DNA of 64,000 bases from assembly GCA_963815395.1 (NCBI GenBank), contig CAWFHC010000002.1:70432-134431 (forward strand), read 5' to 3'. The notes beneath the pieces are model-generated. The model saw only the letters and a list, made by a program, of their open reading frames with translations, made no database searches and was not told where the DNA came from. Of the stretch, positions 57,342-62,999 are shown in pieces. Made by a program: the position numbers and the translations under genes. Positions within the stretch are counted from its first letter, which is position 1; each line of letters begins with the position of its first letter. The DNA comes from an uncultured Methanoregulaceae archaeon. Its GTDB lineage: Archaea; Halobacteriota; Methanomicrobia; Methanomicrobiales; Methanospirillaceae.

Positions 57342-58366
57342 ATGGCAGTAAAAAGTTATCTCGATTTGAAAAGTGAGGTCTGGGACACGGGCCAATGTTC
57401 GGGATGCGGTGCATGCGTGGCAGTCTGTCCTGCGGATGCCCTGTTCTTTGATGAAGGAGAAATGGTTGAATCGTCCAAAGAGTAACGGGTACTGCAAACA
57501 GGCGACGGATCAATGTCACTGCGGGGCGTGTTACGCAGTGTGTCCCCGGATCGGCAATCAACCAGCAGAAACAATCGGGAAATTTCTCGAACTTCTGACA
57601 GCAAAAGCAACATCTGACGTCCCGCGTAAACAGAGCGGGGGAGCAGTCACGGCAATTCTTGCAAATGCGCTTGACGAAGGTCTTATCGATGCAGTTGTCA
57701 CGAGTTACCGAAGATCGGTGGACGCTCAAACCCTCGTCCGTAATCATTACAAAAACCGATGTGCTCATTGAGCAGGCTGGCAGCCGGTACAGCTGGTGGG
57801 TACCGCTTCTTGCGGCTCTCAAGTATGCGGTAGTCATCAAAAAGTTCAAACGGATTGCAGTTATTGGTGTTCCCTGTGCCGTTCAGGCAGTAGCCCGCAT
57901 GCGTGAAAGTGAAAATGATCTCCTAAAACCGTATGGGAAAGCAATTCGCCTCGTAATCGGCTTGTTCTGCACCGAAACGTTTGATTATAATGCACTCATT
58001 CTGGGAAAACTCAAGACCCACTACAATCTCGAACCTCACGAGATTAAAAAACTCAATGTGAAAGGAAAACTGGAGGTGCTGAAGCAGGACGGCAGCACCA
58101 CAATCGTGCCGCTTGCAGAACTGGAAACCTGCGTCCGTAAAGGCTGCCATTTCTGCACGGATCTCACTGCAGTGCTTTCTGATATATCAGCAGGAGCGAC
58201 AGGCAGCCCTCCGGGATCAACAGCGCTTATCGTCCGAACCCCCACAGGGAAAGGATTTGTCGACAGTGCAGTGCAAAACCAGAAGCTGGATGTCACGCAG
58301 GGTATTGATTCTGCAGCCATTGAGAAACTGGCATTAGCAAAAATCAAGAAAAATTCAAAAAAATAA
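57342..58366 (+). CDS. FrhB/FdhB-like F420-interacting flavoprotein subunit with N-terminal ferredoxin; frameshifted
   Basis: CSGCGACVAVCP, CGACYAVCPR, QSGG.VT.IL, AGSRY, GVPC, IGLFC.E.F, GC.FC.D and DIS.G..GSP.G. Confidence 0.88.
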
Positions 58367-60348: not shown

Positions 60349-60477
60349 TACCGTACTATTATTTCATACCACTACTAATGATAATCGCTTACGGTATACA
60401 TCATGGGGAATGAACAAACCATGATTTTTTTATCTCGGAAAGCCTATTGGATAGATAACTGTGTGAGGGTGTTTTTT

Positions 60478-60747
60478 GTGCCGGAAAAATCGCAATTGAT
60501 CGTATATACGCTTGAGTATTGTCCGAATTGTGACAATCTGAAGGGATTTCTGAAGAACAGCGGCTATACCTATTTCGAGCGTGACCTTTCGACTGCGGAA
60601 TCTCTCACGGAGCTGCGGATGAATGGGATCTTTGTGAATGAAGCCCCGGTTTTACAGAAAGACTCCGATTTCTACACTTCTGCGGATCTTTTTCCCGCAG
60701 GCAAACTGGACGGAGAGCACTTATCAAAGCTGATATCAGGTGAATAA
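60478..60747 (+). CDS. nrdH: NrdH-like glutaredoxin
   Basis: VYT...CPNC..LK and APVL; stop overlaps the nrdD start (TAATG). Confidence 0.85.
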   Translation: MPEKSQLIVYTLEYCPNCDNLKGFLKNSGYTYFERDLSTAESLTELRMNGIFVNEAPVLQKDSDFYTSADLFPAGKLDGEHLSKLISGE

Positions 60748-62929
60748 TGGCACACCGGGAGACCAAGCAGCTTACTTTTGAGGGAATCACAGTTCCCCTG
60801 CTCCCCTCCGTCCGGACATCTGACGGGCATATCATCGAATGGGATCGCAATTGCATTGTCCGACAGATTGTTGAGGAGACTAAACTGGTCGAGACCTTTT
60901 ATGGGTACGAGGGCGCTGACGAAGCGACAGCGCAGGAAATCGCGCATGATGTGGAAAACCGGATCAAGAACATGGGTTTGAAGTCCCTCTCCGGGCCGCT
61001 TATCCGCGAGATCGTTAATATCACACTGCTTGAAAAGGGTATGATACAGTACCGCAATGTTTCGACCCGTGTCGGTACTCCTGTTTTTGACGCACATCAG
61101 ATCGATGTCGGGAGGGGATTTGAAGCGCACGACAATGCAAACCTTCAGGAAAATGCCGAGACTTCACACAAAAAGAAGGCGGACAAGATATCAAAGGAAC
61201 AATACCTGCTCCAGCTCCCCCCAATCTCGCCGATCATCATCTTTCCGGGGAGATGCACATCCACGATCTTGAGTATTTCGGTACCCGCCCGTTCTGCCAG
61301 GACTGGGATCTGCGTTATTTCTTCTATTATGGACTTATGCCCGACGGCAATGGCACAAAAGCTTCCGTGGCTGGTCCCGCCAAACGTGCTGAGGTTGCAA
61401 TCCTCCATGCAGTGAAAGCACTTGGTTCTGCACAGACAAATTTTGCCGGTGGACAGGGTTACTACAATTTCCTCACCTTCCTCGCCCCTTACATGGAGAA
61501 GATGGAATATAACGAGATCAAACAGAACATGCAGATGTTTGTGTATGAAATGACGCAGATGATGGTTGCCCGCGGGGGTCAGCTCGTCTTCTCATCGATT
61601 CAGCTCTCGCCAGGTGTCCCGACACTCTGGCAGGACAAGCCCTGCATCTATAAGGGAAAAATATGGGATGGCAATTCTGCACCCCGCCGGACGTATGGCG
61701 AGTTCGAGCGTGAAGTGCGCCTCCTTTTCAAGGCCCTTATGGAAGTGATGCTCGAGGGAGACTACTGGGGAAAACCGTTCAACTTTCCAAAACCTGAGAT
61801 CTCTATTGAACCTGATTTCATGAATGAACGCGAAGAGTTCAACCGCAAAAACCCTGACCTGCCTACCTTCCAGGAATTATACCTCATGACCTTTGAGCTC
61901 GCCTCGAAGTTCGGCACACCTTATTATGATAACCAGCTTCCTGCTTACCGGGGAGCTGGAAAAGGGATTTCCTGTTACCAGTGCTGTGCTTACCAGTTCT
62001 CAACAGTGGCAGACAAGGATTCTGATTTTGAAAAAAAACTTTTCTTCGAAGATGGAAGGCATTTCTCGATGGGTTCATGGCAGGTTGTTTCGGTGAATTG
62101 CCCTCGCGCAGCCTACAATGCTGAGGGAGATGATGCACGGCTTTTTGCCGAACTCAAGGCGCTTATGGATGTCGCGGTGGAAATTTTTAAGATCAAGCGT
62201 CGCTGGATGGACCTGATCCGGGCGAACAGCCGGATGCCTTTTGCGATGCAGCGCCCAAAAGATCCGAACACCGGCGAACGCGGTGCACTTGCAGTGGATC
62301 TGGAAGGGCTTGTGTACACGATTGGTGTCGTCGGCGTGAACGAGATGGTGCAGCATCACACGGGCAAACAACTCCACGAATCAAAAGAGGCGTTTAAACT
62401 TGCCATACGCGCAATGACAGAGATGGAACTCTACGGTCATGAACTGTCAAAGAAGAACAACATGACCATAGCGCTTGCCCGGACACCGGCGGAGACAACG
62501 GGGCAGAGGTTTGCAGTTGCCGACCTGCTTGATCGCCGTTATCACAATTCTGCCGTAAAGGTGATCAAGGGTGACATTGAAGAAGGTCTGGAGATGCTGG
62601 GCAAGAGCCGCGACCTCCCTGTTTATTACACAAATGGTACCCATGTCGCACCAGGTGCCAACGTTCCGCTGACAAAACGGATGGAGATTGAGCATGTATT
62701 TTTCCCCATTGTAGATGGCGGAAACATCTTTCATATCTGGCTCGGTGAAGCCAGACCAGACCCGCGTGGACTCATGGATATGGCGATGAAACTCTGCCGG
62801 AATACTCAGATCGGTTATTTTGCCTTCACCCGTGACATTACTGTCTCGCTGCGGCAATTCCACGAAATGCGCTCGGGAAAATTATCTGTTGCCCCGTTAG
62901 TCTCATCAGATTTACCGGTGAAAGTGTAA
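60747..62929 (+). CDS. nrdD: Class III ribonucleotide reductase catalytic subunit with ATP-cone, lacking C-terminal Zn/glycyl-radical domain; frameshift near 61220
   Basis: ATP-cone VRTSDG....WD, HIHDLEY, GGQG, QCC, NCPR, TPAE, YYTN..H, GGNI.HIW and YF.FT; no RxxGY. Confidence 0.9.
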
Positions 62930-62999
62930 TCTTTTTTTGGTACACTGCCAATTTTGCACCTGTTTTTTTCTGAGAACTCACTCAGGATACATCCCTCAT

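Follow-up and report, generated by a model that had tools for sequence, protein, structure and literature searches.

A probably split NrdD3-type class III ribonucleotide reductase in Methanomicrobiales, with the radical glycine on a separate 120-residue protein

The window, by which we mean the whole stretch of 64,000 nucleotides analysed here (part of contig C2 of an uncultured Methanoregulaceae archaeon, genome G000), carries a gene for an NrdH-like redoxin followed by nrdD, the gene for a class III (anaerobic) ribonucleotide reductase (Table 1). The longest open reading frame (ORF) of the redoxin gene opens at 60403; its probable start is the GTG at 60478, where an earlier note on this DNA had placed it and which matches the Met of relatives. 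As that note also had it, the gene overlaps the start of nrdD, the redoxin stop and the nrdD ATG sharing one base at 60747. A CP(N/H)C redoxin gene lies immediately 5′ of nrdD in 16 of the 16 related loci.

Table 1 Features of the nrdH-nrdD locus in the window and of the two unlinked genes discussed in the text
Feature	Position	Strand	Remarks
nrdH-like redoxin gene, CPNC motif	60478..60747	+	Pfam Glutaredoxin, E 3e-5
nrdD, N-terminal part (ATP-cone and linker)	60747..61222	+	Frame differs from remainder of gene
Frame break in nrdD, one base missing at C6 run then AA	61217..61224	.	Single 1-base gap relative to five intact relatives (L003-L006, L052)
nrdD, catalytic barrel to last strand ...IGYFAFTRDITV	61223..62845	+	Includes YQCCA finger loop, NrdD3 type
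nrdD, tail of 27 codons (62846-62926) and TAA (62927-62929)	62846..62929	+	Starts with semi-conserved SL[KR]QF.E, then variable
T7 run just 3′ of nrdD stop	62932..62938	+	Read from sequence
Small radical-domain gene	G000:C5:90390-90749		120 aa, CPLCG..CPDCG and SRVTGY; single copy in this genome
NrdG-type radical-SAM activase	G000:C8:83948-84467		TIGR02495, 109 and 26 bits in two frames

Membership of the NrdD family is evident from a 558-residue frame alone (61253-62929, open from about 61124), which covers the barrel and matches positions 43-510 of 562 in Pfam NRDD (E 2.4e-122) and 45-529 of 581 in TIGR02487 (435 bits, cut-off 326). The ORF in front of it, 60747-61415, gives a weak match to the ATP-cone (23 bits, cut-off 25.8). 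Searched by tblastn with the intact 730-residue NrdD of G035, a genome of the same genus, the locus takes up residues 4-159 on the N-terminal part and residues 160-730 in the next frame, the barrel region being 87% identical to the G035 chain. We refer to this large chain, which runs from the ATP-cone to just past the last barrel strand, as the core; its mean column identity is 86%. The finger loop GISCYQCCAYQF is found in the window NrdD, and the cysteines C412, C415 and C416 of this loop are invariant among the 17 cores compared. A QCC(R/A) finger loop without an upstream Met defines the NrdD3 subtype (bioRxiv 10.1101/2022.04.23.489257); the YQCCA in the window agrees with this definition, and the NrdH-like gene that overlaps the nrdD start gives the operon arrangement of the subtype.

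The conservation from the ATP-cone to the last strand that the earlier note had reported holds, but nrdD does not form one open frame here, a one-base break at 61217-61224 having been overlooked. This break is likely an assembly indel and not biology, because frame breaks are common in this assembly (22 contigs, 85% complete): among ORFs sampled from the closed genome of G035, 41 had an orthologue here at 70% identity or above, and 8 of these 41 were split over at least two frames. The nrdG gene of this genome also lies in two frames, broken within the CxxxCxxC radical-SAM motif (CPLRC.YC), and both breaks are probably assembly errors. In G017 (L002), a second low-completeness genome of the genus, a base is missing at the same nrdD homopolymer and an extra base is present in the tail (window 62870-62880), which fits the systematic homopolymer errors of long-read assemblies. 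Elsewhere in the window, an FrhB/FdhB-like ORF at 57659-58366 (+) aligns with no more than the final 38 of the 78 positions in the profile for the N-terminal domain, and may represent another frame break or a mis-called start in the assembly.

The 3′ end of nrdD reads directly as the earlier note described it, with the stop 27 codons past the last barrel strand and followed by the T-run, possibly an archaeal terminator. Three-frame translation downstream of nrdD gave no CxxC..CxxC together with RxxGY, and a tblastn search of contig C2 with the genome's own free radical-domain protein (see below) gave no match, so that the claim that no frame yields the zinc site or the glycyl loop is borne out on both counts. 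The zinc site and the radical glycine are not on the same chain as the barrel, the NRDD match stopping at 510 of 562. Nor is there an NrdG-type gene inside the window, again as first read from the letters; the nearest radical-SAM match on C2 falls outside it. Two candidate tails were considered and discarded. The frame-1 stretch ...IICCPVSLIRFTGESV... that follows the last strand, read as a shifted CxxC/RxxG tail, is unconserved, and relatives end in the frame used by the window; the tail Gly in EMRSGKL, read as a zinc-free radical site, is not conserved either, relatives having RPKK, KADK or RPDK there.

The early end of the core is found throughout the order. In a six-frame NRDD profile search of 41 genomes of the order, of which all but this one are at least 95% complete, 38 contained a core of about 730 residues at NRDD positions 1-510 of 562 plus an unlinked small frame at about 503-562; the small frames, that of this genome included, comprise 121-150 codons and match NRDD with E values of 1e-11 to 1e-15. 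Relatives of the same genus have single nrdD frames of about 728 residues, which follow the query right up to its end, and 25 cores from six families all end 24-32 residues past the conserved strand ...GYFAFTRD(I/L)TV, so the orthologues do stop at the same position, the point on which the earlier note had wanted a check. The tails of these 25 cores begin with SL(K/R)QF.E and are variable thereafter, with no conserved Gly or Cys pair, and in most cores examined a Ser takes the place of the zinc ligand that comes first after the last strand (TVC). Neither a local truncation nor a sequencing error at the 3′ end accounts for this pattern, because relatives end at the same place and the small gene is order-wide. 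The case that would have told against a split enzyme, namely full-length NrdD in relatives and no free glycyl domain, is not what these 38 genomes contain.

A search of the whole genome for a small ORF with CxxC..CxxC and RxxGY and for nrdG, as the earlier note had proposed, found the one on C5 and the other on C8. The sole significant family match of the 120-residue protein is the NrdD tail (Pfam NRDD 516-562, E 1e-13; TIGR02487 540-580), whereas PF01228, the Gly_radical family of pyruvate formate-lyase (PFL) type, found no match in this genome at E ≤ 1. In the Prevotella copri NrdD (PDB 8P23, 743 residues), its profile aligns with residues 697-737. The protein is exactly 120 residues long in ten genomes from six families, with a mean column identity of 83%; the invariant positions include C29, C32, C41, C44, C53, C60, H62, C71, C74, C79 and C82, as well as SRVTG95Y and WN.GKQQELKDR. 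Its median dN/dS is 0.10 (residues 1-65, 0.12; residues 66-120, 0.07), and judging from these ratios the N-terminal zinc-ribbon part is itself under purifying selection. Modelled alone with AlphaFold2, the protein reached a mean pLDDT of 63, with the glycine loop below 50. Copies are named in databases as 'anaerobic ribonucleoside-triphosphate reductase', 'oxidoreductase', 'Spt4/RPABC4' or hypothetical.

The small gene is flanked by pyrF upstream and a gene for an OB-fold SSB/RPA-like protein downstream, and 8-9 of the 9 genomes compared, which come from six families, share this gene order (L035-L044). It overlaps by 4 nt a gene that encodes CbiZ (adenosylcobinamide amidohydrolase) with a Cys-rich zinc-finger-like part, the two together spanning L035 4391-5631 (G000:C5:90390-91630).

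Outside the order, every NrdD found in a 111-genome sample of the same phylum was one-piece, matching the profile at 1-560 of 562 in 600-820 residues. Two one-piece NrdD3 enzymes of a sister lineage, 816 and 804 residues long and with the same finger loop GISCYQCCAYQF, share 73% and 68% identity with the G035 core across some 700 residues, the alignment reaching as far as residues 751-762 of these chains. Their last 45 residues are matched at 64% identity by residues 76-120 of the small protein. Because the core and the tail of the small protein match adjoining parts of the same one-piece chains, the comparison indicates that the two genes probably arose by gene fission. A homologue of the small protein (47% identity over about 80 residues) was also seen in the genus g44 of a sister family (G095, G102, G113 and G148), for example at L060 1967-2359(-) in G095 and L061 1779-2135(+) in G113. 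The g44 genomes also have two one-piece NrdDs with tails of their own, and the free protein there could be either a true spare part or a precursor of the split.

The third component, the NrdG-type activase, whose locus is also given as L013 1213-2041(-) (G000:C8:83660-84488), scores above the TIGR02495 cut-off in 36 of the 41 genomes of the order, and NrdG2 (TIGR02495) was found in 16 of 17 genera. In the remaining genus the core and the small gene are missing as well, and the only reductase is of class II; core, small protein and NrdG are, as far as gene content tells, present or absent together. That the radical domain might instead be fused to the activase was considered and rejected, the C-terminal extension of the NrdG-like protein having no RxxGY motif. 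Two FeThRed_B genes are present in this genome, and their products are possible reductases for NrdH.

Of the 41 genomes, 39 have a class II reductase (PF02867), so the split enzyme is not essential everywhere. No PF02867 match was obtained in G036 (99% complete) or in four genomes from the genus of G000, which are 93-98% complete and include a single-contig assembly; each of the five has core, small gene and NrdG, and neither a class I nor a class II reductase turned up in any of them. The two-piece enzyme presumably works, since these five genomes show no other reductase. The 85%-complete genome studied here yielded no intact reductase of class I or II. A class II relic of 52 residues lies outside the window at C5:193655-193810; it shares 56% identity with residues 489-540 of the class II enzyme in G035 and occupies the syntenic site, adjoining the orthologue of that gene's neighbour.

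We also predicted the complex of G035 core residues 160-730 with the 120-residue protein and 2 Zn, a check that the earlier note had recommended. The prediction reached an ipSAE of 0.79 (runs 0.77, 0.79 and 0.81), compared with 0.00 for the best of 3 controls. Of 80 solved complexes, 58 attain the ipSAE mark used, as do 2 of 110 mismatched pairs; the present prediction differs from this calibration in that the alignments for each chain were made by us and zinc was included. The runs have at least 80% of their contacts in common, with a partner pLDDT of at least 78. On the side of the small protein, the confident interface comprises residues 59-120, glycine loop included, with residues 86-98 predicted to lie against the barrel; on the side of the core it comprises residues 344-351, 391-395, 583-589, 610-612, 625-644, 663-681 and 695-710. 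Residues 1-58 of the small protein were left unplaced. The model supports binding of the core and the small protein, but since the two chains together make up a fold that has been solved in one-piece NrdDs, this pass may reflect likeness to those structures and may not be independent evidence of binding.

Gene content, conservation, the signs of fission and the joint occurrence of the parts make it, in our view, highly probable that the window contains the nrdH-nrdD operon of a naturally split NrdD3-type class III reductase, the radical glycine of which resides on the separate 120-residue protein. The large subunit would consist of the ATP-cone and a ten-stranded barrel with the YQCCA loop and would end right after the last strand; the product of the gene on C5 would carry the zinc ribbon together with the radical glycine (SRVTG95Y). 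An NrdG-type activase would generate the radical at Gly95 of this product, residues 59-120 or so of which would dock in the barrel at the site taken by the covalent tail of one-piece enzymes. The radical would then move to a finger-loop cysteine, the ribonucleoside triphosphate would be reduced, and the active-site disulfide would be re-reduced via the NrdH-like redoxin, as in the Methanosarcina enzyme. Of these steps, binding is predicted by the complex model, and activation in trans and the electron path are what we infer from the parts present. The earlier note had suggested that the radical is supplied in trans by a small Zn-ribbon/RxxGY protein; the gene for such a protein has been found, its binding to the core is as predicted above, and the transfer of the radical would follow from the model. 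Core, small protein and NrdG are encoded at unlinked loci, and we assume that they are co-expressed. The conserved N-terminal 58 residues of the small protein, with their further Cys/His clusters, carry no role in this model.

Three other explanations have to be weighed against a split enzyme. The small protein might be a spare part of GrcA/YfiD type that rescues oxygen-damaged enzyme and is not a regular subunit. It is indeed a free-standing radical domain like GrcA, and the g44 homologue accompanies two one-piece NrdDs and could there only be an extra. What makes this reading very unlikely in the present order is that the cores have no radical domain to be damaged in the first place, so that the small protein is the only source of the glycine, and that five genomes are without any other reductase. 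It is just as improbable, in our view, that the nrdD described here is a decaying pseudogene, frameshifted and truncated, and that another reductase serves the cell. The two frames of both nrdD and nrdG would suit such decay, as would the class II reductase of most relatives, but the truncation is order-wide and the core highly conserved, the sole break in nrdD is a single base at a homopolymer in an assembly with 8 of 41 orthologues broken, and a dead nrdD would leave this genome without a reductase, its class II gene being no more than the 52-residue relic.

The least credible of the three holds that the core works without a glycyl radical, for example by having a radical-SAM enzyme oxidise the finger-loop cysteine at each turnover, and that the small protein is employed otherwise. 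Nothing supports this directly; the extra zinc-ribbon region of the small protein does leave room for another function. Against it stand the invariance of SRVTGY and its flanks, where constraint is strongest (dN/dS of 0.07 in residues 66-120), the joint loss of the small protein, the core and NrdG in one genus, and the docking prediction, which sets residues 86-98 of the small protein against the barrel.

Closest to the split enzyme among known systems is the one-piece class III reductase of NrdD3 type from Methanosarcina barkeri, reportedly described with its NrdH-like redoxin by Wei et al. in Biochemistry in 2015. The two have in common the QCCA loop, the ATP-cone, an NrdH-like gene beside nrdD and the NrdG activase. 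They differ in that the M. barkeri-type enzyme has the zinc site and the radical glycine on the large chain, whereas here the last ~50 residues are on an unlinked 120-residue protein; unlike a one-piece tail, moreover, this protein has an extra conserved Cys/His-rich N-terminal part of 58 residues. A second parallel is GrcA/YfiD, an autonomous glycyl-radical cofactor of pyruvate formate-lyase that replaces a damaged covalent domain. Like GrcA, the protein described here is a small free-standing glycyl-radical domain that is presumably activated by the activase of the parent enzyme and docks in the barrel. Unlike GrcA, it has no damaged domain to replace, the large subunit here never having one, and it belongs with the NrdD tail and not with the PFL-tail family, to which the PF01228 search gave no link.

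To our knowledge, every characterised glycyl radical enzyme has its radical glycine on the catalytic chain, and the only known free domain is GrcA, a repair part of PFL. A 2026 review names the formate lyases as the sole class of glycyl radical enzymes with identified spare-part proteins (PMC13450708). A divided reductase is on record in another class, namely the split class II enzyme NrdJa/NrdJb of Pseudomonas aeruginosa (Crona et al. 2015, cited in PMC9669993). NrdJa/NrdJb resembles the present case in that the reductase chain is divided into a large body and a C-terminal piece required for turnover; it differs in being of the B12-dependent class, with a small piece that has no protein radical and with adjacent genes, whereas the genes here are unlinked. 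In the literature on NrdD3, split NrdD, autonomous glycyl radicals and the class III reductases of Methanomicrobiales, we found no description of a split class III enzyme. The known part of our finding is the class III reductase of NrdD3 type, and the new part is that its radical domain is housed in a second protein.

It appears that, throughout an order of methanogens, the anaerobic reductase operates with its radical in a subunit apart from the catalytic chain, and in some genomes this two-piece enzyme is the only reductase found. If this is true, the step between activase and substrate would be open to study on a protein of 13 kDa, it would become clear how a barrel takes up a radical loop in trans, and the modularity of the ancestral reductase would be addressed. 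Annotation could also be corrected, the large gene being at risk of a 'truncated' flag and the small gene going under various names.

A more speculative extension, which we consider rather doubtful, is that the detached radical domain is a diffusible and exchangeable carrier of the radical, charged by NrdG away from the barrel. Upon cleavage by oxygen, a cheap piece of 120 residues would then be discarded in place of an enzyme of 730 residues, and the extra zinc-ribbon half would dock the activase or sense the redox state. On the same supposition, the accessory copy of the sister family would be an intermediate, the protein having been a spare part first and an obligate subunit later. Through the 4-nt overlap with the CbiZ gene, cofactor supply could influence whether the class III or the B12-dependent class II enzyme is used.

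Two further observations concern the nrdD genes of the order. Inteins interrupt the cores of several families (L029-L034, for example L033 910-6021), where one or two in-frame insertions lengthen the frames to 1200-1727 residues; those in G022 match Intein_splicing and LAGLIDADG_3. G021 has, in addition to the split enzyme, a second, one-piece NrdD of another subtype (L045, G021:C1:590703-592373; a 569-residue frame) with its own CxxC..CxxC and RRVSGY tail, and is so far the only such genome found in the order.
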